Shown in pieces: positions 12,865 through 58,900 of a stretch of DNA of 64,000 nucleotides (position 1 is its first letter; the number at the start of each line of letters is the position of its first letter). Both the position numbers and the translations under genes were made by a program. Location of the stretch: the NCBI RefSeq assembly GCF_031769215.1, contig NW_026782006.1, positions 908,070 to 972,069 on the forward strand, written 5' to 3'. The notes beneath the pieces are model-generated. The model worked only from the letters and a program-made list of their open reading frames with translations. It searched no databases and was not told where the DNA came from. This DNA is from Ylistrum balloti. Taxonomy: Eukaryota.

Positions 12865-13086
12865 ACCAAATCACATATCTAGTTGATAAGATTCAAGCTT
12901 TTATTGGATATACTCACCTTAGAAGGTATTGGTAATATTCTATCTTTGGAAAACTGTACCACAGGAGCCCTTCAAATCAAGAATGATGACCATTTAGAAA
13001 TTATTTCAGGATTGACAATCCATTTTAACATCTATACAACAAATTATTCAACAATTGTTTTATAACAAACATTGGAGTACACATCA

Positions 13087-13508
13087 TATAACTCCAGACT
13101 GTAGACAACATATAACTCTGAGGTTATAGTAGACAACATATAACTCCAGATTATGGTAGACAACATATAGCTCCAGGTTATTGCAGACAACATATAGCTC
13201 CAGGTTATGGTAGACAACATATAACTCCAGATTATGGTAGACAACATATAACTTCAGGCTATGATAGACAACATATAACTCCAGGTTATGGTAGACAACA
13301 TATAGCTCCAGGTTATTGCAGACAACATATAACTCAAGGTTATGGTAGACAACATATAACTCCAGGTTATGGTAGACAACATATACTCCAGACTATGTAG
13401 ACAACATATAACTCAGGTTATGGTAGACAACATATAACTCCAGGTTATGGTAGACAACTGTAGTACAACATTAACTCCAGGTTATGGTAGACAACATATA
13501 ACTCTTAT
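13087..13508. repeat. 27-bp minisatellite, copy 3, degenerate with many small indels
   Basis: Same unit but decayed; runs directly into the 51-bp array with spacer B missing. Confidence 0.8.
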
Positions 13509-15605: not shown

Positions 15606-16595
15606 CACCTCATACTGGTCTTCTACTTCACAACTCATTTCCAAGGCCAATTCCTCCTTCCCTTCTCTATCCAATTCTGAAGACTTGATTAGAATTTGAT
15701 ATTAATCAGAGCTGTATCAAGCAGAAGTTTTTGTCAGATATTGTTAAGAAATCATTCCCTTATCAGCATAACCCTTGTCAAAAGTCTTAAGAAATGTGGT
15801 TTTCCTCATCTTTGAATTATGGGACCAGTATGAATTTCCAGGTGATAAAATTGACTGTCAATGAAAAAAATCCTTCATCTTAATTTCTCAATCTATTAAC
15901 CTGTTTGAAAGTGTTGTTTTCTAATATGATAAACACTAGCAGTGATCAACAGTTGGGATATTAGGGTATTTTATGTAAATATACTAAATTTGTGTGATCA
16001 AATTTTAGTGCATCATTACTCTGGCAAATTAGTACGTTGATGAGCTTGTGTATCCATAGTCAAGATCAACATGGAAAACTGGAAAAAATATCAGCCAATC
16101 AGGTTACACCAGCCTCATTAAATATGCACAGAATTTGCCAATAATCACACTTTAACAAGAGATTAAGGTAACAAGTCTACCAACCAAGCCTCCTCATAAT
16201 TCATTTGTTCCTACAAAAGATAACACGTGGAAAGCATTCAGTTAGAGTGTCACAAAATATCAGCCAATCAGGTCACAGCAGTCTCATCAAGTATGCATAG
16301 AGTTTGCAGATACTCAAACCTGAAGAAGGAATTAATGTAATAAGTCTGTAAAGCAAGTTTCCTAAAAATTCTTATCATTTCTTCTTAAGATAAGGTGCAG
16401 AAAGATTTCCCATAGAGTGATTAAAGAAATCAACCAAGTCACAGCAGCCTCATTAAATATGAGCAGAATTCACCGTTAGTCAAAATTGGGAGAGGGATTA
16501 AGGTAACAAGTGAACCAACCAAGTTTCTTCAAAATTCTACCAGTCCTTCTAAAAATATCGTGTGGAGAGAAATTAAAGAAAACACTCAATCAGGT

Positions 16596-16810
16596 CACAG
16601 CAGCCTCATTATCTCAATCAGGTCACATCAGCCTCATTATCTCAATCAGGTCACAGTAGCCTCATTATCTCAATCAGGTCACATCAGCCTCATTATCTCA
16701 ATCAGGTCACATCAGCCTCATTATCTCAATCAGGTCACAGTAGCCTCATTATTTCAATCATGTCACAGTAGCCTCATTATCTTGATCAGGTCACAGTAGC
16801 CTCATTATCT
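16596..16810. repeat. 28-bp minisatellite, copy 3
   Basis: Same unit. Confidence 0.9.
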
Positions 16811-23800: not shown

Positions 23801-26800
23801 GATTAATCTTCTTAAAGAGGTCTACTTAAAATTATTTCAAGAAAATTTGCAAATTTAAATTGGTAAGTACAAAATATGGGAGTTAAGAAGATTACATACC
23901 TAACACCAAAGGTAAACACTCGCGTGTGCTGGGAATTCTTGTGTACAGTGTCCATGGTGATGTCCTGATTGTTAATATGCCCATCAGACACAAGGAAAAT
24001 ATTCCGTAATGCACTCTCTGGTTTGAGCAGGTAGAATGAATGTAAAGGTCGGTACAAATCTGTATTTCCCATGTTTGCATCTACAGACTGTAATGATAAA
24101 GGTGACTTTCAACATTAAATAGTCAATTACACTGTTGAGTGATGCTGATTGGATCAGCAAAGAGTGAAACATTTTCCTTATCAATGGCTCTGTAATATCC
24201 CTTATCATCATTAATTACCGCTAAATAACAATTATTTCTAATAAATTCCTGTAATATCCCTTATCATCATTAATTACCGCTAAATAACAATTATTTCTAA
24301 TAAATTCCTGTAATATCCCTTATCATCATTAATTACCGCTAAATAACAATTATTTCTAATAAATTCCTGTAATATCCCTTATCATCATTAATTACCGCTA
24401 AATAACAATTATTTCTAATAAATTCCTGTAATATCCCTTATCATCATTAATTACCGCTAAATAACAATTATTTCTAATAAATTCCTGTAATATCCCTTAT
24501 CATCATTAATTACCGCTAAATAACAATTATTTCTAATAAATTCCTGTAATATCCCTTATCATCATTAATTACCGCTAAATAACAATTATTTCTAATAAAT
24601 TCCAAGAAGATCCCTGTAGCTGTTTCAAAGTAATAGTGATGATGAGAGTGGTTTACAAATGGACAACAACCACTTATGATATGGTGGAGGTACCTCATGT
24701 TACTGACCTGTATTAGAACTTCAGCTGTAGAGACACTGGACTTGTTCTTCGGTTGGCTTGAAGGGAAAAGTTCACGGAAAGCTGATGAAGACAACAGACA
24801 AGTCATAATTTAAAAAATGCTATGTAAATCCAGCAGACACACAAAAACATCCCTATATGAACACAACTAAATTCTCCAGCAACCATTCAATGTCCCAATT
24901 CAAGGAAACCATTACACTTCAGTTTCACTTCAGAGATAACAAAGCTTCTAAAAATTTATATGTGAAAGCTACAATCTGAAGTTTAACCAATGTACTTACC
25001 TGTCCCAAAAATGACAACATTGAATTTCCAGGTTTTAGGCAGGAAGTGGAGGATAAGAAGCAGAATCTTCTTGGCCTCATTCAAACCCTTGTCTGTCATG
25101 GAGTTGGACAAGTCAAGCATGAGGATGACCTCTGACTCATTGTCCTCACAGGCCTCAAACTCGGGGTAAAACGTCAACATACAGGCCTAGGATAAAACAG
25201 TAGAATGTCAACATATAGGGCAAGGATAAACAGTACAATGTCAACACACAGGCCTAGTATAAACAGTTCAATGTCAACATATAGGGCTAGAGTGAACATT
25301 AGAATGTCAACATACAGGCCTAGTATAAACAGTAAAATGTCAACATACAGGGCTAGGATAAACAGTAAAATGTCAACATACAGGCCTAATATAAACAGTA
25401 CAATGTCAACGTACAGGCCTAGTTTAAACAGTAAAATGTCAACATATAGGGCTAGAGTGAACATTAGAATCTAAACATACAGGCCTAGTATAAACAGTAA
25501 AATGTCAACATACAGGGCTAGGATAAACAGTAAAATGTCAACATACAGGCCTAATATAAACAGTACAATGTCAACATACAGGTCTAGTATAAACAGTAGA
25601 ATGTCAATATATAGGTCTTGGGTGAACATTAGAATCTAAACATACAGGTCTAGGGTGAATAATAAAATGTCAACATGTCAACATACAGGTCTAGAGTGAA
25701 CATTACGATGCCAACGTACAGGTCTAGGATAAAACATTAGAATGTCAACATACAGGCCTAGGATAAAACAGTAGAATGTCAACATACAGGCCTAGGATAA
25801 AACAGTACAATGTCAACATACAGGTCTAGGATAAAACAGTACAATGTCAACACACAAGCCTAGTATAAACAGTTCAATGTCAACATACAGGCCTAGGATA
25901 AAACAGTACAATGTCAACATATAGGGCAAGGATAAACAGTACAATGTCAACACACAGGCCTAGTATAAACAGAACAATGTCAACGTACAGGCCTAGGATA
26001 AAACAGTACAATGTCAACATATAGGGCAAGGATAAACAGTACAATGTCAACATACAGGCCTAGGATAAAACAGTACAATGTCAACATACAGGCCTAGGAT
26101 AAAACAGTTGAAAACCAAGCTTGACTGCTGCTTCTCTCCTACCAAATTTCATGTGAACTTCTTACAAATTAAAATGAATTAAAAACTTCTTGAGGAAGAA
26201 GTTGTATTAAGATTCCCATACTGATCTCTCACCTGCTTTGTTGGATCATCTTCACTCTGTTCTACCCACATACGAGGGACATGAGCCTCTGCTAACTCCA
26301 AAAGAAGTTGAAAGCCATCACCAATATTTAGATTTGGTTCCATCACCACAAGGACTGTAGATTGTTCAGGCTACAATATAACCAAGGTACATCTGACTGT
26401 AACATTGACCTGCTTTGCTTTCTCATCATATACAGATTAGTGACAAAAATTTGGAAACGACAGCATTTAAAATATAAATTATGATCAACTAATTCAAGAG
26501 GTCCAATAGGGTCCTTGGTGCAAAAAGGACAGATAAACAAACCGAGGACAGATTGACTCACCACAAAACAGGCAAAGTTAGAACAGTTCTATCCATCACT
26601 GGACAAATAGTCTTCCTGGGGACAATTTGATCTATCACAAAACAGACAGACTGAGGACAGTTTGACCCACCACAGAACTGACAAACTTAGGGCAGCTTGA
26701 GTCACCCAAGGACAGATAGACAGACTGAAGATAGGCTAACCTCTCACTAGAAATACAGACTGAAGAGACTACAAGACACTACAGTACACACAGACACATT

Positions 26801-29800: not shown

Positions 29801-32800
29801 TAATTTTTCAATGTCAAAATTCTAGACAAGTCAACTGTTGACCATGGTGTTTTTCTGATCAGTCCCAAAATCAAAGGGGCTCAATTAGGGACTGAGGGAA
29901 ACCTACAAATGAACTTTGAGAAAAGATCCATCCTCTAATTCTCAGGAGAAAGTGATAATTGAAATTATTTATGGATGGTCATAAAAAATGGACATCAGGC
30001 AGTTTTAAAAGCCCACCATCAGATGATGGTGGGGAAAAATCTAAACATTACAAAACTTGATTAAATTTGAAGTTTTGTTACATAAAAATTCATCTTAATG
30101 CTTGCAATTTTGATCTCAGTCTTAGTGTAAAAAAATATTTGTGATTTTCAGTTAATGTTTGTCATGGTCTGTGGAGGCTGTGTATCTGTGACTTCCTATC
30201 AACGTTTGTGATAGTCTGTTGAGGCTGTGCATCTGTGACTTCCTGTCAATGTCTGTGAAAATCTGTTAAGGCTGTGTATCTGTGACTTCCTGTCAATGTT
30301 TGTGATGGACTGTTGAAGCTGTGTATCTGTGGCTTCCTGTCAATGTTTGTGATGGTCTGTGGAGGCTGTGTATCTGTGACTTCCTGTCAATGTCTGTGAT
30401 GGTCTGTGGAGGCTGTGTATCTGTGACTTCCTGTCAATGTTTGTGATAGTCTGTTGAGGCTGTGTATCTGTGACTTCCTGTCAATGTTTGTGATAGTCTG
30501 TTGAGGCTGTGTAACTGTGACTTCCTGTCAATGTTTGTGATAGTCTGTGGAGGCTGTGTATCTGTGACTTCCTATCAACGTTTGTGATAGTCTGTTGAGG
30601 CTGTGCATCTGTGACTTCCTGTCAATGTCTGTGAAAGTCTGTTAAGGCTGTGTATCTGTGACTTCCTGTCAATGTTTGTGATGGTCTGTTGAAGCTGTGT
30701 ATCTGTGGCTTCCTGTCAATGTTTGTGATAGTCTGTTGAGGCTGTGTAACTGTGACTTCCTGTCAATGTTTGTGATAGTCTGTGGAGGCTGTGTATCTGT
30801 GACTTCCTGTCAATGTTTGTGATAGTCTGTTGAGGCTGTGTAACTGTGACTTCCTGTCAATGTTTGTGATAGTCTGTGGTGGCTGTGTATCTGTGACTTC
30901 CTGTCTGCTGTGTAACTGTGACTTCCTGTCAATGTTTGTGATAGTCTGTTGAGGCTGTGACTTCCTGTCAATGTTTGTGATAGTCTGTCTATTGAGGCTG
31001 TGTATCTGTGACTTCCTGTCAATGTTTGTGATATGGTCTGTGGAGGCTGTGTATCTGTGACTTCCTGTCAATGTTTGTGATAGTCTGTTGAGGCTGTGTG
31101 TATAGTCTGTTGAGGCTGTGCATCTGTGACTTCCTGTCAATGTTTGTGATAGTCTGTGTGAGGCTGTGTATAGTCTGTGAGGACTGTGACTTCCTGTCAA
31201 TGTTTGTGATAGTCTGTGGAGGCTGTGTATCTGTGACTTCCTGTCAATGTTTGTGATAGTCTGTTGAGGCTGTGTAACTGTGACTTCCTGTCAATGTTTG
31301 TGATAGTCTGTGGTGGCTGTGTATCTGTGACTTCCTGTCAATGTTTGTGATAGTCTGTTGAGGCTGTGTAACTGTGACTTCCTGTCAATGTTTGTGATAG
31401 TCTGTTGAGGCTGTGTAACTGTGACTTCCTGTCAATATCTGTGATAGTCTGTTGAGGCTGTGTATCTGTCACTCCCTGTCAATGTATGTGATAGTCTATT
31501 GAGGCTGTGTATCTGTGACTTCCTGTCAATGTTTGTGATGGACTGTTGAAGCTGTGTATCTGTGGCTTCCTGTCAATGTTTGTGATGGTCTGTGGAGGCT
31601 GTGTATCTGTGACTTCCTGTCAATGTCTGTGATGGTCTGTGGAGGCTGTGTATCTGTGACTTCCTGTCAATGTTTGTGATAGTCTGTTGAGGCTGTGTAT
31701 CTGTGACTTCCTGTCAACGTTTGTGATAGTCTGTTGAGGCTGTGCATCTGTGACTTCCTGTCAATGTCTGTGAAAGTCTGTTAAGGCTGTGTATCTGTGA
31801 CTTCCTGTCAATGTTTGTGATGGTCTGTTGAAGCTGTGTATCTGTGGCTTCCTGTCAATGTTTGTGATAGTCTGTTGAGGCTGTGTAACTGTGACTTCCT
31901 GTCAATGTTTGTGATAGTCTGTGGAGGCTGTGTATCTGTGACTTCCTGTCAATGTTTGTGATAGTCTGTTGAGGCTGTGTAACTGTGACTTCCTGTCAAT
32001 GTTTGTGATAGTCTGTGGTGGCTGTGTATCTGTGACTTCCTGTCAATGTTTGTGATAGTCTGTTGAGGCTGTGTAACTGTGACTTCCTGTCAATGTTTGT
32101 GATAGTCTGTTGAGGCTGTGTAACTGTGACTTCCTGTCAATATCTGTGATAGTCTGTTGAGGCTGTGTATCTGTCACTCCCTGTCAATGTATGTGATAGT
32201 CTATTGAGGCTGTGTATCTGTGACTTCCTGTCAATGTTTGTGATAGTCTGTTAAGGCTGTGAAACTGTGACTTCCTTTCAATGTTTGTGATAGTCTGTGG
32301 TGGCTGTGTATCTGTGACTTCCTGTCAATGTCTGTGATAGTGTGAAGAGGCTGTGTATCTGTCACTCCCTGTCAATGTCTGTGATAGTATGAAGAGGCTG
32401 TGTATCTGTCACTCCCTGTCAATGTCTGTGATAGTATGAAGAGGCTGTGTATCTGTCACTCCCTGTCAATGTCTGTGATAGTCTATTGAGGCTGTATATC
32501 TGTCACTTCCTGTTAATGTTTGTGATAGTATGTTGAGGGTTTGTATCTGTCACTTCCTGTCAATGTCTGTGATAGTATGAAGAGGCTGTGTATCTGTCAC
32601 TTCCTGTCAATGTCTGTGATAGTCTATTGAGGCTGTGTATCTGTCACGTCCTGTTAATGTTTGTGATAGTATGTTGAGGGTTTGTATCTGTCACTTCCTG
32701 TCAATGTCTGTGATAGTATGAAGAGGCTGTGTATCTGTCACTTCCTGTCAATGTCTGTGATAGTCTATTGAGGCTGTGTATCTGTCACTTCCTGTCAATG

Positions 32801-35800
32801 TCTGTGATAGTATGAAGAGGCTGTGTATCTGTCACTTCCTGTCAATGTCTGTGATAGTATGTTGAGGCTGTGTATCTGTCACTTCCTGTCAATGTCTGTG
32901 ATAGTATGAAGAGGCTGTGTATCTGTCACTTCCTGTCAATGTCTGTGATAGTATGAAGAGGCTGTGTATCTGTCACTTCCTGTCAATGTCTGTGATAGTA
33001 TGAAGAGGCTGTGTATCTGTCACTTCCTGTCAATGTCTGTGATAGTATGAAGAGGCTGTGTATCTGTGACTTCCTGTCAATGTCTGTGATAGTATGAAGA
33101 GGCTGTGTATCTGTGACTTCCTGTCAATGTCTGTGATAGTATGAAGAGGCTGTGTATCTGTCACTTCCTGTCAATGTCTGTGATAGTATGAAGAGGCTGT
33201 GTATCTGTCACTTCCTGTCAATGTCTGTGATGGTATGAAGAGGCTGTGTATCTGTTACTTCCTGTCAATGTCTGTGATAGTATGAAGAGGCTGTGTATCT
33301 GTCACTTCCTGTCAATCTTTATGATAGACTGGTGGTGATTATATTCTTACATTGCTGTCCTGAGAGCTCTTTTTCCATGGTGCTAAGGTACCTGGAAGAC
33401 GGAAACTGACAAGATCATCTTCAACCTGTAATTCTGTGACATAGGTTATCTTGATAACAACATCTGCATTGGCCGGAACATTTCCCACACTGACTGTAAA
33501 CACATCCTGTTAAGAAAATGAAAACTGTCAAATCATCAGAACCTCAGCTTCAAGATTTGCTGAAGATGAACATGTACCTTATACTGTTGAAACTTGTCTC
33601 AAAAATCCAAATCCAAATTCTGTTAGAGTTTAAATAATTTTCAAGTCATGAACTTTTTCCTATCATATCTTTGTAATTTCAGTTTGGATGACTCGAATTT
33701 CATTGAGTCGAAATTTCGGTTGAGTCAAAGCAATTTTTCAGTCCCTTCCATTGGAAAGCAAGGGAAAACTCATTTATTGTCTTGAAATTGATTTTTGTCA
33801 AAACAATGGTTTGTCTTCTGACCAAATCGACAAATACATACACAAAGTAGAAAGTCACATATGTGTAACACATGGCTAATTACAGCATATCTGTGGTCCA
33901 TCGTACACACAAAACTTGGTCACTGGCGATTAGTTACCAGTTTAATTATCCAATTAAAGTTTGGCTTCTTAATTAGTGTCACCATCTTGTAGAAGTGACT
34001 TACCTGTACATTAAAAAAGTAGCATGTTAACACAAAACATGAAAACATTTAGCTTGGTTGCGTGCATCTTCAGGAACAATAAAAACGAAACTGTCAAACC
34101 AGTATAAACTTTTTGACGAAATCTGATCCCAACAATTCCAAAAGAAACTAATTTTAAGCTTGTTTACTAAAGGACTGTGATCGGTAACTTTGTAAGATTT
34201 AGTGTTTGGACAATGAAGTGCTGAACGTATCTGTCGTTAATTTTTCATTAATTCATGATTAAACAATGGTGTAAAAACTAACATCAGGAAAAAACATAGG
34301 AGTCCGCCTTGTGTATAATACTGTTTGACACTTTCTGTTATCTGGTTCCTTCTGCTTGTAGATTTTATCCGTTAAAGTCATTAATGCCCTTGTAACTGAT
34401 ACATAATTTAGATTGAACACTTTATAGATTTTATCTGTGTAAGTCATTAATGCCTTTGTAACTGGTACATAATTTGGATTGAACACCTTATAGATTCAGA
34501 TCAGAATTCAAATTGAATTTCGGTTTTCCTTTCATTGAATCAATACTTAAAACTCTTTCACAAAAGTTTGTTTTGAAATAGTAATTCTAACAAGCTGTTT
34601 GACATACCGGTGATTCTTCATCCTGATCCATCAGGTAGGCCCCATGGCCCTCACTGATAGCCTTTTTGTACTCTTGGTGAGCCGTCTCTTTTTCTTTCAC
34701 CTCCCCGACCACATGCTTGTCATTGATGTATGCTTCAAATCCACACACTGCAGCCATCTCATCAAGGGGAAAGACATACTTGCCCTCCAACATTTCCTCA
34801 CTGTTGTTATGGTAATGTTGTAAAACCTTCACCTGACAAGGTTAAGGTCACAACTCACTGTTTAAAGTTATAACTACACCAATCTCCATATAAATGAGGA
34901 GACAGGATGTATCAGCTCAAATTAACCTTATTTTGCAGTTTTGAACATAATGTGTCACATAAATGTTTTGACATAACTAATCCTCACCTGATATGTCAAG
35001 GTTCAACAGTTTAAATTAGTCAAAACTTTGTCAAACTCGTCAAGGTCACAATTATCTACTGTTACAATTACACTATGTCAAGGTCACAATTACCTACTGT
35101 TACAATTACACTATGTCAAGGCCACAATTACCTACTGTAACAATTACACTATGTCAAGGCCACAATTACCTACTGTAACAATTACACTATATCAAGGCCA
35201 CAATTATCTACTGTAACAATTACACTATGTCAAGGTCACAATTATCTACTGTAACAATTACACTATGTCAAGGTCACAATTACCTACTGTAACAATTACA
35301 CTATGTCAAGGCCACAATTACCTACTGTAACAATTACACTATATCAAGGCCACAATTACCTACTGTAACAATTACACTATGTCAAGGTCACAATTATCTA
35401 CTGTAACAATTACACTATGTCAAGGTCACAATTACCTGCTGTAACAATTACACTATGTCAAGGTCACAATTATCTACTATAACAATTACACTATGTCAAG
35501 GTCACAATTACCTACTGTAACAATTACACTATGTCAAGGTCACAATTACCTACTGTTACAATTACACTATGTCAAGGTCACAATTACCTACTGTTACAAT
35601 TACACTATGTCAAGGTCACAATTATCTACTGTTACAATTGCACTATGTCAAGGTCACAATTATCTACTGTTGCAATTACACTATGTCAAGGTCACAATTA
35701 CCTACTGTTACAATTACACTATGTCAAGGTCACAATTACCTACTGTAACAATTATACTAACTTTGTTTATTAATAATACACTAGTACCATTATTAATTAT

Positions 35801-38800
35801 TTCACAAAAATGGAAAATCTTGTAAATATTATGAAGCAATCAAAAAAGTCATGTCACTACTTGTAGAAAACACAGCAATATTTTACTTTATCAGATAATC
35901 TGGCTGTTGTTCCATGCATTCATCCATGTAATATTTTTACTTCAATGTCACTAGTGTAATTTACCCTAGAGCATTTTTCATTGGCTGTTTCATTCAGAAT
36001 TGAATCGTGATGTTATATCATGGATGATGATGTAATGTCATGAACAGAAAATGGAACAACAAAATGGCTGTCTTTGTTGGATTTTCCTCCTTCTGTATTA
36101 ACAACTGTGAAAACTTCAATCACCTGTGTGATCAAATGTATTCTCATTTCATACAAGATTTTTTGGAACACATCTTGCTTGCCAAAAAACTATGAAAATA
36201 AAACAAATTTTTTACAAAATAATTGTACAATAAATACTGTAGTAACCTGTCCTTTAAGTATGCGATTGATATTCATTCTATTAACAAAACAACTACAGGG
36301 AAGAATTTGACAAACAATTAGTCAAACATAATATCATTCACATCAAAATACCTCAGCCACCAAGTCCTTCAGTTTGCCAAACACATTTACACTGGTTAGT
36401 TCAACAGGATTAATGTCTTTCCCATCAGCCACCAGTCCTGATTTCACCTTTGTCATGGGATCTAAGACATCTTTCACATCTGCTAAATCTGAAACAAGGA
36501 TTTTATGTCATGATCACAGAAATTCACAAACTTAAAGAATGTTCATTCCATCCAAATATTTTTTGGTTTATTGAAATAGCTGTAATATTTTAAAGACTCA
36601 GTCATTATACAAATTACTAGTGATTATAAAGGAAAACTTTGCAACACCAGGCAATTTTCCTGACTATCAGAAAACAATTAACACCAAAATACACAAAAAT
36701 ACACTAAAAGGAGCACTTATCATGCTAAAGAAACATTCTTCTTATTCTTCAAATCTATAACATATTCTCCAAATTATTGTCAAACATCAGAAAGCTATAA
36801 ATCAATTATATATCTTTTAACAAATTACAGTTTCCAAACTGATTTTATTTAAATTTAATACATACTGATTTTGTCCATTTTTGTTGTTGAGTCAGTATAA
36901 GTATCAACACTGTTGTCTGTGGGTACAATTTCCATAGGTATAGGGGTCTCACTGCCGATGGTGAACTCCACCAGGTAGCACATCTTCTGTTGATTCTGAG
37001 AGTATACTACATACTCATCCTCCTAAAACATAAATACAAATTCCCTTTCCCTGCTAATAATGTCCTCACTCACCTTTCTCACTTAGATATTTACTGCCTT
37101 CAATATTTTGACAGAAATTACAGGAAAAAGGAATATATGACTGGACAGGAGACATACTTTTTACCAGCGTGAAGATAACTTTGGAATCATTCCTTATGGC
37201 ACATAATCACCAGAGGAGCAAAAGAATCTCCCTCCCGGCACTATATTTTGACAAAATTTAAATCGTAATTGTAAAATCTTAACAATATCTTACCGTAAAG
37301 TCAGATGCTTTGTTGGATGTGCTGGCCACACCATGGACACTAGAGTACCCATCTGGGGCATGCTCAAGGGTCTTGTCATGTGTGTATAGGTCCATACACT
37401 TGCCTAGAGCAACCTTATTAACCAGCATCATCCTTGTGCCCCGACTCTTACTGACCTGTGAGTACTTCACACTGGTGCTGGAAAAACAATACAATAACTG
37501 ACTGCTGGTGAAAAGGTGCATCAACAAAGTGTGAGATAAGTAATTATCTCGTTGTTATAGTGTGAGATAAGTAATTATCTCGTTGTTATAGTGTGAGATA
37601 AGTAATTATCTCATTGTTATAGTGTGAGATAAGTAATTATCTCCTGGTTATAGTGTGAGATAAGTAATTATCTCCTGGTTATAGTGTGAGATAAGTAATT
37701 ATCTCCTGGTTATAGTGTGAGATAAGTAATTATCTCATTGTTATAGTGTGAGATAAGTAATTATCTCCTGGTTATAGTGTGAGATAAGTAATTATCTCGT
37801 TGTTATAGTGTGAGATAAGTAATTATCTCGTTGTTATAGTGTGAGATAAGTAATTATCTCATTGTTATAGTGTGAGATAAGTAATTATCTCCTGGTTATA
37901 GTGTGAGCTAAGTAAGTATCTCATTGTTATAGTGTGAGATAAGTAATTATCTCCTTGTTATAGTGTGAGATAAGTAATTATCCCCTTGTTATAGTGTGAG
38001 ATAAGTAATTATCTCCTTGTTATAGTGTGAGATAAGTAATTATCTCCTTGTTATAGTGTGAGATAAGTAATTATCTCCTGGTTATAGTGTGAGATAAGTA
38101 ATTATCTCATTGTTATAGTGTGAGATAAGTAATTATCTCCTTGTTATAGTGTGAGATAAGTAATTATCTCCTGGTTATAGTGTGAGATAAGTAATTATCT
38201 CGTTGTTATAGTGTGAGATAAGTAATTATCTCGTTGTTATAGTGTGAGATAAGTAATTATCTCCTGGTTATAGTGTGAGATAAGTAATTATCTCGTTGTT
38301 ATAGTGTGAGATAAGTAATTATCTCCTTGTTATAGTGTGAGATAAGTAATTATCTCCTTGTTATAGTGTGAGATAAGTCATTATCTCCTTGTTATAGTGT
38401 GAGATAAGTCATTATCTCCTTGTTATAGTGTGAGATAAGTAATTATCTCCTTGTTATAGTGTGAGATAAGTCATTATCTCCTTGTTATAGTGTGAAATGT
38501 ATTACATAATTATCTCCTGGTTATAGTGTGAAAACTTTCAACCACATTTACTATACACAGTTCTCCATTACATTATCAAACATACAGATTTTGGTTCTTT
38601 GTGCTCACAAATATTGAAAGAAAACATTTAAACATGTATACCAGTATGTATTCAAACCTGAAACTCTCAAAATCAAATTAAATTTTTCTCCTATTCTCAC
38701 ATCATTACAAAAAGAAATGTAAACTAGACACAATAACATAACTTATAGTTACAAGCATTAGAAGCCTGGTAAATATGTATCTTTATTTTCTTACCTTGCA

Positions 38801-41800
38801 GCACTTGCAAAATAGATTCCGGCTCCTAACATTCCGGCATCTGTCCTCTTCCCTCCAAAGTCATCCACAACAACCTTTGGCATCAGAAGACCCCTTGGGA
38901 ACCCAATATAATCATACTGATACAAATTAAACTTTCAGGACACAGAGTCCACCCCCTTCATTCACTTGTCCAGATTTGAGTGGGAACAAAATAAAACTTT
39001 ATCAGTTTTCAAAACATTTCCTCATGTTGTCTTAAATACCACCAAACAAATACAGACATTAATAGAGAATATCTCCATCTGTTACCAAAAGGAAGTCTGA
39101 TGTTGGATTGTCTACGACTGTCATGTACTGTAACAGGGGGTCCAAGTTATGTGTTAAGTCCAGTGCAGATGTTCCATACATTAGGCTTGTTCCCAGAGTA
39201 TATCATTAACTACAGTAAAGTATAAACACTTTGGTGATGAGCTTACCTAGACAAAATCCCAACCAGTAAAGTATAAACACTTTGGTGATGAGCTTACCTA
39301 GACAAAATCCCAACCAGTAAAGTATAAACACTTTGGTGATGAGCTTACCTAGACAAAATCCCAACCAGTAAAGTATAAACACTTAGGTGATGAGCTTACC
39401 TAGACAAAATCCCAACCAGTTAAGTATAAACACTTTGGTGATGAGCTTACCTAGACAAAATCCCAACCAGTAAAGTTTAAACACTTTGGTGATGAGCTTA
39501 CCTAGACAAAATCCCAACCAGTAAAGTATAAACACTTTGGTGATGAGCTTACCTAGACAAAATCCCAACCAGTAAAGTATAAACACTTAGGTGATGAGCT
39601 TACCTAGACAAAATCCCAACCAGTAAAGTATAAACACTTTGGTGATGAGCTTACCTAGACAAAATCCCAACCAGTAAAGTTTAAACACTTTGGTGATGAG
39701 CTTACCTAGACAAAATCCCAACCAGTAAAGTATAAACACTTTGGTGATGAGCTTACCTAGACAAAATCCCAACCAGTAAAGTATAAACACTTAGGTGATG
39801 AGCTTACCTAGACAAAATCCCAACCAGTAAAGTATAAACACTTTGGTGATGAGCTTACCTAGACAAAATCCCAACCAGTAAAGTTTAAACACTTTGGTGA
39901 TGAGCTTACCTAGACAAAATCCCAACCAGTAAAGTATAAACACTTTGGTGATGAGCTTACCTAGACAAAATCCCAACCAGTAAAGTATAAACACTTAGGT
40001 GATGAGCTTACCTAGACAAAATCCCAACCAGTAAAGTTTAAACACTTTGGTGATGAGCTTACCTAGACAAAATCCCAACAAAGTTGTTTGGTTTTGAAGC
40101 ATGAAACAGGAGATTCTGACCAAATAGTTCCTTGGTAAAGTTATCCTCTTCCATCTGTCTTTGTACCTCAAACACGTTAATTATGTTCAGTCTGGTGTTC
40201 CTAATGTACAGAAAATAGAAAAGTTTGATTACTTTGTTTACAACCAACAAGTGGTAGGAGCATGTTCAGATCACAACATGTTCTTTCTATATGTATCATA
40301 AAAAATTCAGATTACTTCACCTAAAATAACCCATACTTTGAATAACGAGCCCATTAAAACAGATCACAACCAGTCTACAATGTTCACAGCTTCACTTTTA
40401 TTGTCATAGACCACTTCTACTTAGAAGCAAGTTTACATTTAACGCTATAAACTTGTCACCAGTAAATGTAACTGCTTCTGCAATCATTGATTTCAACAAC
40501 TTTTGTTTGTAAAGAGTTGCTTACACCAATTTTATGTGTTTCCAAAATGTAATTAGTAGTAAAATAAAGAGTAAAACTGATCCTGAATCTATTTGCTAAA
40601 AGTAAAATAAAGAGCAAAGCTGATCCTGAGTCTATTTGCTAAAAGTAAAATAAAGAGTAAAACTGATCCTGAATCTATTTGCTAAAAGTAAAATAAAGAG
40701 TAAAACTGATCCTGAATCTATTTGCTAAAAGTAAAATAAAGAGCAAAGCTGATCCTGAATCTATTAGCTAAAAGTAAAATAAAGAGCAAAACTGATCCTG
40801 AATCTATTTGCTAAAAGTAAAATAAAGAGCAAAGCTGATCCTGAATCTATTAGCTAAAAGTAAAATAAAGAGTAAAACTGATCCTGAATCTATTTGCTAA
40901 AAGTAAAATAAAGAGCAAAGCTGATCCTGAATCTATTAGCTAAAAGTAAAATAAAGAGTAAAACTGATCCTGAATCTATTTGCTAAAAGTAAAATAAAGA
41001 GCAAAGCTGATCCTGAATCTATTAGCTAAAAGTAAAATAAAGAGTAAAACTGATCCTGAATCTATTAGCTAAAAGTAAAATAAAGAGTAAAACTGATCCT
41101 GAATCTATTTGCTAAAAGTAAAATAAAGAGTAAAACTGATCCTGAATCTATTTGCTAAAAGTAAAATAAAGAGTAACGCTGATCCTGAATCTATTAGCTA
41201 AAAGTAAAATAAAGAGTAAAATTGAACCTGAATCTATTTGCTAAAAGTAAAATAAAGAGCAAAGCTGATCCTGAATCTATTTGCTAAAAGTAAAATAAAG
41301 AGCAAAGCTGACCCTGAATTTATTTGCTAAAAGTAAAATATAGAGCAAAGCTGATCCTGAATCTATTTGCTAAAAGTAAAATAACGACCAAAGCTGATCC
41401 TGAGTCTATTTGCTAAAAGTAAAATAAAGAGCAAAGCTGATCCTGAATCTATTTGCTAGAAGTAAAATAAAGAGTAAAGCTGACCCTGAATCTATTTGCT
41501 AAAAGTAAAATATAGAGCAAAGCTGATCCTGAATCTATTTGCTAAAAGTAAAATAACGACCAAAGCTGATCCTGAATCTATTAACTAAAAGTAAAATAAA
41601 GAGCAAAACTGATCCTGAATCTATTTGCTAGAAGTAAAATAAAGAGTAAAGCTGATCCTGAATCTATTAGCTAAAAGTAAAATAAAGAGCAAAGCTGATC
41701 CTGAGTCTATTTGCTAAAAGTAAGATAAAGAGCAAAGCTGATCCTGAATCTATTTGCTAAAAGTAAAATAAAGAGCAAAACTGATCCTGAATCTATTTGC

Positions 41801-50358: not shown

Positions 50359-53300
50359 CTGAAGAAAAAGAAAACAATTACTTTAGCTGTGTATTTTACA
50401 AAGAATTTCCATAAGCAGTTAGAACATTTCTTTGTAGATGTCAATATACTAACAGGTTTTACAGATAAAGTATAATTTGTAAAAATGCAAATTGTTGAAT
50501 ATATTTAAAATCACTCCATAAATTGCACTTAACATCTACATCACTCTCCAGAATACTAATCACTATCAAAAAGAGAACTGAATAAAATGTAACATACTAA
50601 ACTTTCCTGCAATTAAAATGTCAGATTCCTGGATCACTACTTATATTTTCTTAAGAAGTTACAGAAAACCAATGACTAATACACAGACTACTCATCAGAT
50701 GAAAATTTTAATTAACTAAAATTTTTTTTAAAATCACATCTAAAAAGTCAACTACCCCTAACCAACTTATTCCTGAACAAGATCAGGCCAAAGAGCCACT
50801 TGAATTCTATTAAACTTCATGCTTGTTCACAAAATAGTTGATGATGCTACCACTTAACCCAGAAACTTACCTGTCCAATACTAACAGCTGATGCTGTCAC
50901 CACTTAACACAAAAACTTACCTGTCCAATACTAACAGCTGATGCTGTCACCACTTAATACAGAAACCTACCTGTTCACTACTAGCAGTTGATGATGCGAC
51001 CCCTGATGGTAAAGTGGACTGTGCTGATGGTAGATCCATGTTTAATTCCAATCTGTAACACAGGACACATACAATGTATCTATGATCAAAAGAGAATTGA
51101 TTCTAAAGTCTCATAAGTTAGCAAAATGAACACCAAAGGAATTACCACAAGTATAGAAGTGGTACATCACTTCATACAATCGAGTAGGACAGCTTGTGCA
51201 ATTGTATACACAACAAGTAAACTACAATAGATAATCCATTTCATATATACATATGTTCATTGTGTATCTCTAGTACATCAACAAACATCCTGTTTTCATA
51301 ATACATCATTGAAATCTGTTGATGGTCTTCCATAGACAAAGTTGACAGATAACTGAACAAAAATATGTGAAATTATAGTTCATCAAAAACAAATATTGAA
51401 GGTTTTACTGATTGACATACCCAGCCTCATCAGCAACTTCCTGCATAAGGCCTTCCACCTGTGTCTGTGGTGTGTTGAGGGTGGACGAAGCATTCATTGT
51501 ATCCTCCATTACCTGTGACTGCACATCTAGATTCTCAAACTGCTGTTCAAATCTATCCATCAACTGGGAGATCTGTAAAAAGGAGGAATCACATTCATTT
51601 CAAAATCTGATGGATAACACAACACTTGTCGGAAGATATCAAGTTATGTACAGTATCATAAAATGAAGAGGTGCCCTTCACACCCTGCTTAACTACAACT
51701 TGACACCAATAATTAACTGCTTTCTAACACGATCAATATGATATATAGTCTGGAGTAGTATTTACAGGCCCAAGGAACACTACATATGTACATACTAAAT
51801 TTGATAAAGATTAGATTTTTGAATTCTGAAAAGCATCATAGATGAACACTTCAAAATACATCAATATATCTCATCATTCTCCAGGTGAAGTTTCATTATA
51901 ACAAAAATAAATTTACCTTCTCCAGATTCATACTCTTCATTGCTGATTCCATTGACTTGACCACACCTGCCATGGAACCTGTGACCTGCCGATCATAGAC
52001 ATTTACATATTTTATTCATATCTAGAAATCTAATTTATCAATTCACCTTCATATATTTCTAACAAAATAGATCTGTATTCTTTAAAGAAGCAATATTTAC
52101 AGAAATCCCAGTGACATTTTATGAAATTCACTATATATAAAGTTGGTTGTTGGTCTGTAACAATACAGTTCAATATTGTAAAGGTACATGCTGTAGAAGT
52201 AATATTATTTTAGTGTTTTTCATGTTAAGGATATCGCACAAAAATGGCTTTGAGAATTTCCAATTTCTGTACCTTGTCAATAGAGCAATTATTGTAAAGG
52301 CAAAAATTCAACATAGAACTTATTTGTTTAAAATTTAAAATGAACTGTGCCGAAATAAATATGTTTAAGACTTAGTGAACATGTCAGAAAATAACATAAA
52401 TCTGAGGTAACCTTGACTGAAGTTACCAAGCAAACTCTATAAATGATGAATGAGTAAGATATTATGTACCTGTTTCATGGTGACAGCAGTTTGAACTCGA
52501 GCTGCTACAGCATCGATCCTTGCACTCATACGTCTGTAATTAAGGGCCTGGTTTTTCTGGCGGATTGAATTCTCTGCATGTATTCTGGCTCCCTCCAGGT
52601 TACCTTTCTGGATAGCCTGTAACAAGTAAATTCTTATTTTTTAGAAAGAATCTGAATACACAACCTGAGACTCTAATAACATCAAAATGAGATTTAATTT
52701 AGAAATTATGATCAAATTTCGTATAAATTCTACACTGATCTGACATAGACCAAGGCTGTAAGATTATCAGAGAGCACTAATATCAAAAGCAATATGAGGT
52801 TTCATTAAAGTGTCTGATTGTAACAATGACAGTGTTAAGAACTAGACAAACTATTTCTTGCCAAATGTTGACTTCCAGCAGTGTCCTACCCCTTTGGTGG
52901 TACATGACACACTGTCTGAAGGCATTTTCTAAATCATATTGTGTTCTAAATTTCATTAAGGTAACTGGAAGAAAAGAGAAACCATGTGCAAGATGGCACT
53001 AGTTGTACCAATATGATCTTCACCAGTGATCTAAATTAGCCTTCTTATTAATGCACATGAATATGGAGGCCCTGCTTGACTAGACTTGTATTTAAAACAA
53101 GTTGTACATCTTATTTCTTTACATATATGTACAGTTTTTAAAACAAAAAATTGAACTTAAAGATGTACATTTACAATTATAATTTCATTTTACCAGTATA
53201 ATGTTACAGAATATCATCATCACCTGTACATATGATTGACAATTCCAATATTTCTGTGTTACAATAAACTCACCTTTTTCAATTTTCTTTTTTCTGATCT

Positions 53301-54623
53301 TTCTTCCTTATCACATTTGTTAGCAAAACGCAGCAGTGACCTAGCACTATATTTCAAATTGAAGAGTTGTCCTGCAGTGTGTTAAGGTTTAGATCTGTGT
53401 GCTAAGTGTGTTATACAAAAGCTTAGGTATAGGTCAAAGATTATGTCAGTTATAGAAAAGTAATGCATACAGATATATCCTAAAGAATTAGAAACATGTA
53501 TGAATTATGCTCCGATGACTAGGCTTATCAGCAAAATGAAATAACAAGGTTAAGTTTGTGATTCCTTGTGTATAATTGAGATTATGTAAAATTTGGTTGC
53601 AAATTGTTTTATCTAATATCCATTATAAATCCCATCATTCACTTCATAGGGCAGTCATTATAAAACAACTGAACTGCCAGAAAATTTACTAGCAATACCT
53701 CACACAACAATTACCTTGGAGGATCAGAACTGTGTTTATGATAGTAATAAGTAATCAAATGCTGCTACAGCCTTACATCATTGCTGTAGAGATGAAATGG
53801 TACATATAATTGTGTTTATACAGATTGTGTTAAGTACCTCTATTTTAAATACATAATCGCCATTTGGCACATCAGTAACATTTGTCCTTTACATGTTACA
53901 GTAAAAACGGTTTAGATCAAATTCTATCATACTGATCAGTTATAGTTTTTCTTAATTATACTTTAAGATGTCAGTAACCAGTAAGTTCTAGGCTTCTCTT
54001 GACCGAGCCTAAAGTTAAGATTCTTGTAAGCTCTAAGTTTACCTTGACCAAGCCCAAGATCATGATTCCAAATTTCTTAGTTTCCCTTGACTAGGCCTAC
54101 AGTTAATATTCTAGTCAGTTCCAAGTTTCTCTTGACAAGGCAAAAGGTGAAGATTCTAGTAAGATTGAAGTATACCTAGACCAGACCTAAGGTTAAGGAG
54201 AATCAACAAGAATTACAAGTTTGTTTTTACAACTCATTTCCTATTGTCAATGTCATTCTATGCTTGTATAATATAAGATATGTGTAATAGAATAAGTGCA
54301 TTACAATAAGTGCTATACGATGTAATATTTTATATTGGTAATATCTTAAACATATAATTGTTTCAAGTTATATGTGGTACACTAGTCAATACTTACCTTA
54401 TAATTACATACATATGTAACTAATTATTTGTAAAATACTTACCTTATAATTACTGGTAATCAATGCATAAATTTCTGAGTTATACTTACTTACAAGCTCA
54501 TTAAAAGGTATATGAGCAACGTTACCTTTTTTAATTTGGTTTTTTCTTCTTTTTCTGACTTTTCACTTCGTTTTGCATTGCGTTCCAAGTCCTTTGCAGC
54601 AAATTTGAGATTAAAGAGATGTT
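50320..54623 (-). CDS. CHMP1: CHMP1 (charged multivesicular body protein 1, ESCRT-III; CHMP1B-like) gene, exons 2-7 modelled, exon 1 not found
   Basis: Exons translate to HLFNLKFAAK...AIQKGNLEGARIHAENSIRQKNQALN..RMSARIDAVAARVQTAVTM...VTGSMAGVVKSM...ISQLMDRFEQQFENLDVQ...DELTQRLAKLRN*, collinear with human CHMP1B; canonical splice sites and phases. Confidence 0.85.
50878..50978. repeat. CHMP1: ~47-bp unit x3: tandem triplication of the CHMP1 exon-6 tail plus its GTAAGT/GTAGGT donor
   Basis: Minus-strand reading: ...GTGAACAG|gtaggtttctgtattaagtggtgacagcatcagctgttagtattggacag|gtaagtttttgtgttaagtggtgacagcatcagctgttagtattggacag|gtaagtttctgggtt. Confidence 0.85.
50971..51052 (-). CDS. CHMP1: CHMP1 exon 6 (G)LELNMDLPSAQSTLPSGVASSTASSEQ
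   Basis: Acceptor gtgttacag|, donor CAG|gtaggt; this donor is tandemly triplicated downstream. Confidence 0.8.
51421..51572 (-). CDS. CHMP1: CHMP1 exon 5 ISQLMDRFEQQFENLDVQSQVMEDTMNASSTLNTPQTQVEGLMQEVADEA(G)
   Basis: Acceptor cctttttacag|, donor GG|gtatgt. Confidence 0.85.
51917..51985 (-). CDS. CHMP1: CHMP1 exon 4 VTGSMAGVVKSMESAMKSMNLEK
   Basis: Acceptor ctatgatcggcag|, donor AAG|gtaaat. Confidence 0.85.
52470..52616 (-). CDS. CHMP1: CHMP1 exon 3 AIQKGNLEGARIHAENSIRQKNQALNYRRMSARIDAVAARVQTAVTMKQ
   Basis: Acceptor cttgttacag|, donor CAG|gtacat; near-identical to CHMP1B. Confidence 0.9.
53274..53371 (-). CDS. CHMP1: CHMP1 exon 2, copy A (paralogous alternative): QLFNLKYSARSLLRFANKCDKEERSEKRKLKK
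   Basis: Acceptor cactgcag|, donor AAG|gtgagt; identical 98-bp length and phase to copy B, 1.25 kb downstream. Confidence 0.65.
54526..54623 (-). CDS. CHMP1: CHMP1 exon 2, copy B: (K)HLFNLKFAAKDLERNAKRSEKSEKEEKTKLKK
   Basis: Acceptor agtctag|, donor AAG|gtaacg; 98 bp with 2+32 codons; closest match to CHMP1B EKHLFNLKFAAKELSRSAKKCDKEEKAEKAKIKK. Confidence 0.7.
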
Positions 54624-55798
54624 CTAGACTGTTAAGGTATATCAGTCAAAGCATGCAATAGGTATATATATCAATATACATAAAAACACAGTCATATATA
54701 TAAAAAACTATACACAATTAAGATTAAGGACGCTTAATATACAGCTATATATATCTTATTGGAAAGGTATGATATACTTTTATGATGATAAACATATAAA
54801 CTTAGAATAAATTCATAATTCCAGAGACATATATAACGTGTTACATACGTCTATGACAATTCCAATATGCAGATTTTTGTTGAATATTGTTAAAAAACCT
54901 ATAACATGCTAATAATCATAATGATGACATCTTATAGCATCTAACAATCTTTTTGATGGAGGATATGTATAACGTATACAGATAACACAGGACCACAAAC
55001 TTATAATTATAGACATACACATTTAAGTCTATGATACATATAGGACATGTCTATGCATCTATACAGTTAATTCTATCCCGAACCTGGTAAGAGTGATAAA
55101 CCCCGTCACAATTTTGTAACATGAATCTGGATTCAGTTTAATCATATATACATGAACAAACTAAAATTAAAGCACTCGCTTTGCTGAAAACAAATTTTGT
55201 ATCTGTATATCTATATTTAAGTTCAGAGCTAACAGTACTTTATAGTAAATATCACAATCAACATCACTTATTTATTTTACAACATGAGGGTTTATGACAT
55301 GGGCCATATTCACTACCTTGAATGGCACTTCAGTAGAAATCCCCTAAATGGTACAATGTTTAAGAATCCTAATATTTCCAATAAACAATTCCATGTGTAA
55401 TCAGGAAATCGTGACTTCCAATGTTTACATTTTCTGCTTCCATCAAGCAAACAGATCTTGAGAATCAACATCTCACCCATTTTTAAGCATCAGAATGTTT
55501 TCATTAATAGTTTAAAGGATACTGTCCATCGACATCTTTCGTTTCTGTTTTCCTCAGATTAAGTTTCCCTGTGTTTGTGTTTAAGATCTGTCTGCAAGAG
55601 TTGTGATTGAGAAATGACTACTTCCCTTGTGATGTTTAATGGAAAATGAGCTCATTGTAAAACGTCATCGGTATTTGTGTATTATTTGGATATCGGAACA
55701 CCTTTGAATCGATCCTTTACTTGAGTGCATGTTGCATTGGGTAATGTAAAAATACGAGGACTTCCGACTTGGAGAAGAGCACATGGGTTTCAGTAAAC
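54624..55798. promoter_or_regulatory. Putative shared divergent promoter region between CHMP1 (minus) and URB1 (plus); the unidentified CHMP1 exon 1 should lie here
   Basis: Head-to-head gene orientation; URB1 ATG at 55799; CHMP1 exon 2 needs an upstream exon that supplies the ATG and one phase base. Confidence 0.3.
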
Positions 55799-55955: not shown

Positions 55956-58900
55956 GTTCGGTTCTGCAGTCGGCCGATTTATTTTGCATCAACTTAAAAA
56001 AAACTACCGGTACTAGCAGATTCGCAGGCCTGAAAATTCTAATGTCACTTGTTCCGACCAGAAGTTTGAATATTGTAGTGACAAACAGTTTTGGCACTTG
56101 CAGTTTTATTACAGTATTAATCGGTTGATATGTTTGTGCAATGTGAGATCGAAGAAATTCTTCAATGTTACCGTGTCTAAGAAAAAGGCTATTTATGGTC
56201 ATGCATTCACACGAATAACAGACTTAAATATGTCCAAGTTCGTTCTCACACACATCATGACTGCTGACATTTTTATACATTGTCAACGATTGTAATGGAA
56301 CATATATAGTATGTCGTTTTCTGTTCGATGACAACCAATCACTTTCAAACTCCCCAGGGTGCAAAGTTTTGTATGTCTGAACAGCTTTTTGTCATAATAA
56401 GAAATCTCAAATTGGTTTACAGATAAGATTCAGATTGCGTCTTGAAACTTTGTTGGCTCTCTGGCTACATCATGAAATAGGTTTTTTAAAGAGTTATTGC
56501 CCTTTCTCTTTTTCAGCATTAAGAATTTTTTTGGCACTATCTTCCTCAGTTTACAACTATTTTCTATTAAACTTTGTAGGCATTATAAGTATGATAAATG
56601 GGCATGTTTTCCTCTGTAATATTGAGAAACCTGTAATGAGATTTAATATTTTTTCAAGTTTTCGCTTCTTCTTTCAGCATTACAGTATTGTCCCGAATTA
56701 TTCTCTCAAATTTCAACTTTTCTCTGTAATACTTGGTATGCTTTACCATCAGAACATCAATATCCATTTTGATTTATTTCATGATATGGCCAATTTCCTA
56801 AATTTGTCCTTTACTCTTTCAATTTTCATCCCAACTAACAAATTTTCTTCCAAAAATGAGATAAAAGGCTTTTTCCCCAAAAACTCAGAGGGAAAAAACT
56901 TTCAATTTCATTGCTGTTGGGAAGTCATGAATGTTGTCTAGTATAGGGAGAAAATGACAAATGTATTGGTGTATTTCAGTAAATTTTGTGATAATTCAAA
57001 TACTGATTGTTAAGTTTTTTGATCACATGTTTACTGTGATAAAATTACCCATATCTAATATTTTGCTTATAATCAACATTTAAACACTGGACATAGTTTG
57101 GAACTGTGAGTTAATATGATGTTTGATTGTTACAATAGTCCACTTCAGATAGCCTGTATTGTATCAGGCATTGAATCATGTGCTTGTCTGATTACAACAA
57201 TTTAAAAAAAAAGATTTTCAATAAAGTATTTAAGGAAGCACACAAGTTAAACTATGTAAATCAGGGGTAGCCATTTAATGGCATTTTAGATGTAAATATA
57301 AAGAAAGTAACATTTAAACAAGTCATAGCTCACATCCTATCTGGATTCTGGTCTTATCAGTATTAAAAGTTTTTGTATCTTATTTCAGCTTTTGAACAAT
57401 TTTCTGAGACTGCACGTCAGTGGTCAGAGGAGCATGGATATGATATCATTGCTGGATACTGTCGATCTTCAGCAGAATGCAGTGAAATATTTAAAGTACT
57501 TGAAGCAGGGAAAAGAAAACCAGGAGAGGTAATCTCAGTCTTTATGATGAAAATACATCACTCCATCTTAAGTATGTTCATTTCTTATATATTTATTTAT
57601 TCATGCTGGTTAATGAGTCCTTGCTGACATAGACATTACAAAATCCTAATATAATGTTAAGTGAATCATACAGTAGACTTTCTTAGTAAAAGAATGATGG
57701 GAGAATTGTAGACCTAGCCTAAACTGAGCATGTCACAGCCAGAGGACTGGTTAAGGACAGAGTGGAAGAGGAAGGGGATCCTACACTGAGTAAATTTCTG
57801 TATGTTGGTAGTATATTGGGAGGCAGTCAGAATTACTTAATAAATAATCCTTATTGCTAACTTAACCCTGACCTCTGGGCTGGTGTTATCATGCCTGCTC
57901 TTTTTTGAAAAACCACAGAGGGATCTTTGTCACGAGAGTTGGATATTTTTTTATTCGGGCCATCATTCCGCGGACTTTGGGTTAGTGGTTAGATGTTAGT
58001 AAGGTGCTGGTAGGGTGATCTGCCCCTAAACATACTATTTACTTTAGTAATGTCTATACTTTCTGTAAATCCATATGCGATAAACATTCATAGAAAAAAA
58101 ATGTAGAAGTAATTCATACAGTAGACATGTACAGGTAAAAGTGAGTCATACAGTAGATATGTACAGGTAAAAGTGAGTCATACAGTAGATATGTACAGGT
58201 AAAGTAAGTCATACAGTAGATATGTACAGGTAAAAGTGAGTCATATCGTAGACATATACAGGTAAAGTTAGTCATACAGTAGACATGTACAGGTAAAAGT
58301 AATTCATACAGTAGACATGTACAGGTAAAGTTAGTCATACAGTAGACATGTACAGGTAAAAGTGAGTCATACAGTAGACATGTACAGGTAAGATTGAGTC
58401 ATACAGTAGACATGTACAGGTAAAAGTGAGTCATACAGTAGACATGTACAGGTAAAAGTGAGTCATACAGTAGACATGTACAGGTAAAAATGTGTCATAC
58501 AGTAGACATGTACAGGTAAAAGTGAGTCATATCATAGTCATATACAGGTAAAGTTAGTCATACAGTAGACATGTACAGGTAAAAGTGAGTCATACAGTAG
58601 ACATGTACAGGTAAGATTGAGTCATACAGTAGACATGTACAGGTTAAAGTGAGTCATACAGTAGACATGTACAGGTAAAAGTGAGTCATACAGTAGACAT
58701 GTACAGGTAAAAATGTGTCATACAGTAGACATGTACAGGTAAAAGTGAGTCATATCGTAGACATATACAGGTAAAGTTAGTCATACAGTAGACATGTACA
58801 GGTAAAAGTGAGTCATACAGTAGACATGTACAGGTAAAAGTGAGTCATACAGTAGACATGTACAGGTAAAAGTGAGTCATACAGTAGACATGTACAGGTA

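Follow-up and report, generated by a model that had tools for sequence, protein, structure and literature searches.

A minisatellite reiterating the 5' splice site of a catalytic-domain exon in a PARP4-like gene of the scallop Ylistrum balloti

In intron 7 (IVS7) of the human F7 gene, a variable number tandem repeat is formed by a minisatellite of 37-bp units, the first of which straddles the exon 7/IVS7 boundary, and of the 5-9 identical donors that result only the most upstream is used, the pseudo-sites being functional but silent (Borensztajn et al. 2006, PMC1557585). In intron 2 of IFI6 (6-16), with 25 pseudo-sites, and in intron 13 of CBS, with 15-20 repeats, the authentic donor and two proximal pseudo-sites are used, and in LMNB2 and PDGF intron 4 the authentic donor alone (PMC1557585). 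In amphioxus, tandem duplications of exon-intron boundaries known as mirages are reported from Adh3 and the globin genes BflGb6 and BflGb9 (Canestro et al. 2002, as cited by Ebner et al. 2010, PMC3087553); these mirages lie at 5' as well as 3' boundaries, show length instability and leave regular splicing undisturbed in reverse transcription polymerase chain reaction assays (Ebner et al., PMC3087553), and the same source points to earlier discussion of them as material from which introns could be gained (Rogers 1989; Zhuo et al. 2007, cited in PMC3087553). Here, an arrangement of this kind is described in a PARP4-like gene of the scallop Ylistrum balloti, within a window of 64,000 nt of contig NW_026782006.1 (assembly GCF_031769215.1), to whose first letter all positions refer. 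It consists of a 51-bp minisatellite of 17.0 copies at 39213..40079, on the minus (gene) strand, which starts across the 5' splice site of coding exon 9 and repeats this site through most of intron 9.

The array was delimited with Tandem Repeats Finder (period 51, 97% matches, zero indels) and by means of a unit table. Each unit joins the terminal 17 nt of coding exon 9 to the first 34 nt of intron 9, and in the register set by the exon end GTTGGGATTTTGTCTAG/GTAAGCTCATCACC (the slash marking the exon-intron junction, gene strand) is present unchanged in 17 of 17 units. Unit 1 (40079..40029) contributes the 17 nt of exon and 34 nt of intron that hold the authentic donor, and save for this 17-nt overlap with exon 9 the array lies inside intron 9. 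Variation between units is confined to three columns, intron positions +15, +25 and +30. The array is bordered by unique sequence (CTTT/GTTGGG upstream and ACTG/TAGTTA downstream, the slash here marking its edges) and its copy number is integral. A preliminary description of this DNA had given the same unit and position, interpreted the repeat as 17 nt of exon 9 plus a GTAAGC donor and placed the authentic donor at its start, all of which agree with the present analysis.

The authentic 5' splice site, TAG/GTAAGC, lies at 40057..40065 on the minus strand, with its GT at 40062/40061. Downstream of it, exact matching recovers 16 pseudo-donors within 39241..40028, likewise on the minus strand and each in the 23-nt context GTTGGGATTTTGTCTAG/GTAAGC, with the G of the GT at positions 40011, 39960, 39909, 39858, 39807, 39756, 39705, 39654, 39603, 39552, 39501, 39450, 39399, 39348, 39297 and 39246. 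They are spaced 51 nt apart, and all match the authentic site over positions -17 to +14 (16/16). The 17 tandem donors of the preliminary description hold as a total, comprising one authentic site and 16 pseudo-donors and not 17 sites beyond the real one; the GT at the duplicated junction is retained in every unit. Reiteration of the donor in an identical context, which characterizes the donor-spanning class of minisatellites, is likewise seen in the 17 exact copies of GTTGGGATTTTGTCTAGGTAAGC. Both the junction-spanning 23-mer and the 34-nt intronic part of the unit occur 17 times in the window, exclusively within the array, where shuffled sequences lead one to expect 0. A dispersed or transposon-derived satellite was rejected on account of this confinement, and because conserved coding sequence makes up 17 nt of each unit.

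Exons matching PARP4 are colinear on the minus strand from 45463 down to 21204 (tblastn), and splice-site chaining yields a model of 25 coding exons in which the exon that enters the array is the ninth, as previously numbered. The best named matches are annotated as "Protein mono-ADP-ribosyltransferase PARP4", with 46-52% identity to coral and mollusc sequences and E values down to 1e-157; they carry the domains PF00533, PF00644, PF08487, PF13757 and PF00092, the PARP4 proteins listed among the matches being about 1000 amino acids long or shorter. Exon 9 (40063..40200, minus strand, 138 nt) was delimited by its reading frame, PF00644, tblastn with PARP4 homologues and the acceptor ttctattttctgtacattag/G; it ends in phase 2 (...TCT AG) and encodes NTRLNIINVFEVQRQMEEDNFTKELFGQNLLFHASKPNNFVGILS(R), terminating in ...LLFHASKPNNFVGILS(R) and bearing the PARP block LLFHAS...FVGILSR. 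Exon 10 (38795..38893, 99 nt) encodes (R)GLLMPKVVVDDFGGKRTDAGMLGAGIYFASAA, and the joint translation of both exons matches the Pfam PARP domain PF00644 with E = 1.3e-12. The H-Y-E triad is complete, with its His in FHAS of exon 9, its Tyr in GIYFA of exon 10 and its Glu in EDEYVVY of exon 12. The earlier designation of exon 9 as the exon of the PARP catalytic signature is thus correct as regards the signature block, but only one residue of the triad resides there. The BRCT-PARP-VIT-vWA architecture, together with this triad, identifies the gene as an orthologue of PARP4 (vault PARP).

Intron 9, as chained, extends over 38894..40062 (minus strand, 1169 nt), and its 3' part (38894..39212, minus strand, 319 nt) is non-repetitive and terminates in the weak acceptor gattatattgggttcccaag/G. 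The position of the exon 9 donor is supported by frame continuity into exon 10 and by the PARP4 locus of Lottia gigantea, where the corresponding exon ends in ...TTTGTTGGTCTTCTTTCTAG/gta and coding sequence resumes after the intron at ...tatag/AGGATTGTTG, in the same codon and phase. With the first donor, the open frame is clean over coding exons 1-11 and 14-25, two exon boundaries in between not being settled. A misplaced exon boundary, which would have invalidated the preliminary description, was rejected on the basis of the reading frame and of the intron position and phase shared with L. gigantea. The orthologous L. gigantea intron measures 379 nt and is devoid of a tandem array. Since this intron sits at the same codon and phase, the first donor is the ancestral one; and because L. 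gigantea has the same exon end and intron position without the array, the end of the exon, with its codons for the conserved FVG(I/L)LSR, was copied into the array and not the reverse, and the array is lineage-specific.

Position matrices for scoring splice sites were derived from the window itself (25 donors, 23 acceptors), the authentic donor of exon 9 being scored in a leave-one-out manner. This donor reaches 6.36, against a mean of 8.2 (standard deviation 3.0) for true donors, and ranks 20th of the 25; 2.1% of the decoy GTs in the gene score as high or higher. It agrees with the consensus at 7/9 positions and pairs with U1 small nuclear RNA at seven contiguous Watson-Crick positions (-2 to +5). 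It is thus an ordinary, competent donor and not an outstanding one, a property shared by all 16 copies. The acceptor of intron 9 (gattatattgggttcccaag/G, 38894..38915) has a poor pyrimidine tract, and its score in a generic matrix (-3.8) is the lowest among the top-ranked acceptors.

Either read-through of the first donor or the use of any pseudo-donor produces AG/G TAA, a stop in the second codon, even though inserts of 51 x n nt keep the frame length, and an open PARP4 frame is obtained only with the first donor. Because of this immediate TAA, such transcripts would be unproductive, and they should be degraded by nonsense-mediated decay. The exon end and three units show no unusual RNA structure when folded (z = -0.12), a value on which masking or exposure of donors by RNA structure was rejected, and no known structured RNAs were detected in the window at Rfam gathering thresholds.

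With respect to the growth of the array, lags of 51, 102 or 153 nt give a mismatch rate of 2.1% and those of 204 and 408 nt one of 0.6%, and the unit variants follow the order A B C / A C B C / A C B C / A C' B C / C C on the gene strand, a higher-order periodicity of four units (204 bp). Mismatch rates and variant order together indicate that the latest growth took place in blocks of 204 bp (four units), the mark that unequal exchange leaves on a young array, and the block pattern suggests recent turnover. The 51-bp unit and exon 10, sought in metagenome scans for a comparison of copy number, gave no match there.

The surroundings are rich in elements of this type. Minisatellites form about 25 distinct arrays, their periods ranging from 25 to 77 bp, and occupy 25.9 kb of the 64-kb window (40%); ten of them fall within the span of PARP4 and its introns, most of the introns between 42 and 24 kb having one, and the L. 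gigantea PARP4 orthologue contains almost none. Three arrays in the window span a splice junction, namely the one described here (39213-40079, 5'), one at 25166-26108 (3', PARP4) and one at 50849-50993 (5', CHMP1). Their placement was assessed by a simulation in which each array was collapsed to one founder and the ten PARP4 founders were distributed at random over the 15.1-kb collapsed gene with its 48 junctions. Two junction-spanning arrays are observed in PARP4 against 1.47 expected (P(>=2) = 0.45), and exon-internal arrays number 0 against 1.5 expected (P(0) = 0.20); a special affinity of the arrays for splice junctions was rejected on the first of these results. Neither are strong donor-like motifs generally enriched in arrays on the gene strand, where 3/19 carry them (39213, 50849 and 58103), the background density of such motifs being 1.5-2.4 sites per kb. 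The exon 9 array is what a genome with such a density of intronic tandem duplication should produce, exon-internal duplications probably being removed and boundary-crossing ones tolerated.

The explanation considered likely is that the array is a mirage-type minisatellite, a by-product of the very high rate of intronic tandem duplication in this genome, alongside which the first donor continues to be chosen. A 51-bp segment across the exon 9/intron 9 boundary would have been duplicated in tandem and the duplicate amplified by slippage or unequal exchange, latterly in four-unit blocks, so that 16 identical pseudo-donors came to lie behind the authentic one. A duplication that crosses a 5' splice site would be tolerated, and the array would persist for this reason: the first donor, which closes the real 138-nt exon, would still be selected and the further copies would become intron. 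Transcripts arising from a pseudo-donor or from read-through would encounter the TAA at once and be cleared by nonsense-mediated decay, and the array itself would most likely be near-neutral. The cryptic donor choice, intron retention and copy-number-dependent mis-splicing proposed in the preliminary description represent a possibility which, judging from the precedents, was probably overstated.

Several considerations weigh against this explanation. The use of the first donor in PARP4 is argued by analogy and because the frame has to stay intact, and the rules of splice-site choice have been established in mammals, not in molluscs. Each pseudo-donor has the same sequence as the authentic site and lies at a workable distance from the weak acceptor of intron 9. 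Some unproductive splicing is plausible, given that IFI6 and CBS constitutively use their two proximal pseudo-sites. Moreover, neutrality is judged from one haplotype, and copy number is derived from a single assembly in which mis-assembly is possible.

The same features could instead reflect regulated unproductive splicing, with the array acting as a dosage valve that lowers PARP4 output: a copy-number- or condition-dependent fraction of transcripts would use pseudo-donors, most likely those of units 2-3, acquire the TAA and be subjected to nonsense-mediated decay. This would be the mis-splicing proposal of the preliminary description taken at its strongest. The perfect match of 16 pseudo-donors to the authentic site over -17 to +14, the in-frame stop immediately following any of them and the weakness of the intron 9 acceptor are all compatible with such a device. 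It is nonetheless unlikely, as the authentic site is exclusively used in F7, LMNB2, PDGF and the amphioxus mirages (PMC1557585, PMC3087553), and as no sign of selection is apparent, given a placement that fits chance, the absence of the array from L. gigantea and its recent amplification in blocks. A trivial origin, in which the copy number or even the whole array is spurious and the real intron has one or few units, is the least probable of all; a single assembly stands behind the array, and a mis-assembled mirage in a draft genome has been noted in the amphioxus globin study (PMC3087553), but the exactly integral number of copies between clean, unique flanks, the orderly succession of variants in groups of four (A C B C), as is typical of genuine higher-order repeats, and the presence of some 25 other arrays with different units in the same window all speak for a real structure, and the phenomenon survives even if the copy number differs.

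Scarcely more probable is a reading in which the units function as composite splice sites. Each can be regarded as a juxtaposed 3'/5' site, ttttgtctAG/GTAAGC, with a branch-like CTTTAC about 21 nt upstream, such that any donor could splice to the AG of a downstream unit and regenerate the same donor, the array being removed stepwise, as in recursive splicing, or any-to-any and a wrong donor choice being repairable by re-splicing. The exon sequence carried into each unit, ...GGGATTTTGTCTAG, does resemble a 3' splice site, the AG of the unit scoring 5.24 against a true-acceptor mean of 5.72 (standard deviation 2.67), and the adjoining GT scores as a true-grade donor (6.36 versus 8.2); by the logic of the sequence, donor-to-AG splicing would leave ...TCTAG/GTAAGC unchanged. 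Yet 7.4% of decoy intronic AGs score equally well, and the T-rich tract is merely that of the G-I-L-S codons. The intron measures only 1.17 kb, in contrast to the very long introns of known recursive sites, and no intron of the gene model is shorter than 170 nt, which makes unit-to-unit steps of 51 nt unlikely. By construction, the products would not be distinguishable from unspliced RNA. Were the reading true, it would explain the tolerance of the genome for boundary-copying minisatellites in essential genes.

The second boundary-spanning array of PARP4 is a 33/34-bp minisatellite of about 28 copies at 25166..26108, in the minus-strand gene, which spans the 3' splice site of a vWA exon whose true start is at 25186. 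Its unit combines the last 13-14 nt of the intron with the first ~20 nt of the exon (ctgttttatcctag/GCCTGTATGTTGAC, also ctgttttatcctag/GCCTGTATGTTGACATTGTA), giving about 28 tandem pseudo-acceptors directly upstream of the true acceptor and occupying 943 of the 1046 nt of the intron; at a 3' splice site, it mirrors the exon 9 donor array. Elsewhere in the gene, a 47-bp x 68 array of 3.2 kb (30136..33331) begins 20 nt downstream of the donor GACAGCAAT/gtaaga of exon 15 (end at 33351, minus-strand gene). The end of this exon faintly resembles the 47-bp unit (GACAGGAAGTCACAGATA), a likeness that might go back to an earlier copy of the boundary, since decayed.

A CHMP1-like gene lies on the minus strand with its exons between 54.6 and 50.3 kb, every one of them 100% identical to Y. 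balloti XP_060065416.1. A 50-bp x 2.9 repeat (50849..50993, minus strand) spans the 5' splice site of its penultimate exon, which ends at 50971 with ...AGTGAACAG/gtaggtttctgtattaagtggt. Downstream of the authentic donor GTGAACAG/gtaggt come two 50-bp copies carrying GGACAG/gtaagt and then a decayed fourth copy, the gtaagt donors being closer to the consensus than the authentic gtaggt site. The RefSeq protein XP_060065416.1 joins ...SSEQ to DELTQ..., and this corresponds to the first of the three tandem donors. The CHMP1 proteins of Argopecten, Mizuhopecten and Pecten differ in the variable C-terminal exon. At the orthologous locus of Argopecten irradians, exon identity is just 70-82%, the introns cannot be aligned, and PARP4 was not found within 10 kb of CHMP1. 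Judging from this one protein, the DNA most likely comes from Y. balloti or a species very close to it. The N-terminal coding exon of the gene occurs in two versions 1.2 kb apart on the minus strand (53274..53369 and 54526..54624); the copy at 54.6 kb fits the RefSeq protein, and that at 53.3 kb (QLFNLKYSARSLLRFANKCDKEERSEKRKLKK) is a diverged duplicate, an alternative exon or dead.

Further arrays were noted in the window. A 32-bp x 34 array at 58103..59177 (plus strand), in an intron of a URB1/Npa1-like gene, carries CAG/GTAAAAGT in 32 of its units on the gene strand; it spans no boundary, lying ~570 nt from the nearest donor (ccaggagag/gtaatc, at ~57528), and is flanked by partial solo copies of its unit at ~57655-57685 and 59155-59185. 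Also, three tandem copies of a segment of ~5.1-5.5 kb occupy ~2340..16810, each with the same set of minisatellites (27-bp, 51/41-bp and 28-bp units) and with identical open reading frames of 60 amino acids that start at 2343, 7817 and 12883.

The locus constitutes a natural test of 5' splice-site choice, in which 17 identical donors share the same 17-nt exon context and one acceptor, in a mollusc, a host where the rules of splice-site selection have scarcely been put to the test; mirror cases in the same window are supplied by 28 tandem acceptors (25166-26108) and by the three tandem donors of CHMP1. Together they suggest that mirages, as described in amphioxus, are also common in the scallop genome, with introns that consist of minisatellite to about 40%. 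Repeats that copy exon boundaries are a practical hazard for gene annotation and for the calling of junctions from RNA sequencing data, and candidate raw material for intron sliding or gain. No defect or regulation of PARP4 is demonstrated by the array alone. Literature searches returned no scallop-specific report of such repeats; what is new here is the mollusc and the PARP4 host, the boundary-copying minisatellite arrangement being already well described.

Known recursive splice sites, or ratchet points, are single conserved sites in the very long introns of Drosophila and vertebrates. The juxtaposition of a pyrimidine tract and AG/GTAAG in each PARP4 unit, which could regenerate a 5' splice site, is a likeness in resemblance only, as there are 16 recent copies in an intron of 1169 nt, well short of a very long intron, and the motif is explained by copied coding sequence. 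In every structural respect, by contrast, the array conforms to the donor-spanning minisatellite class (F7 IVS7/IFI6 6-16/CBS type). As in F7, the minisatellite is intronic, its units are tens of bp long, the first one contains the exon-intron junction, and the pseudo-donors lie in an identical context. Pseudo-donors number 16 in the scallop array, as compared with 4-8 in F7 and 25 in IFI6; 17 exon nt are copied instead of the 4 of F7, and the donor is stronger (TAG/GTAAGC versus UGG/gugggu). Every pseudo-site of PARP4 leads to an immediate stop, whereas some of those of F7 preserve the frame. The scallop repeat sits in the PARP4 gene of a bivalve mollusc and is described here from its sequence, donor usage and length polymorphism having been measured in F7. 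The amphioxus mirages, with units of 10-160 bp and a demonstrated somatic and allelic instability in length, belong to a cephalochordate and not to a pectinid scallop. The likeness to them resides in the occurrence of boundary arrays at 5' (39213-40079, 50849-50993) and 3' (25166-26108) splice sites within one genome, amid minisatellite-rich introns.

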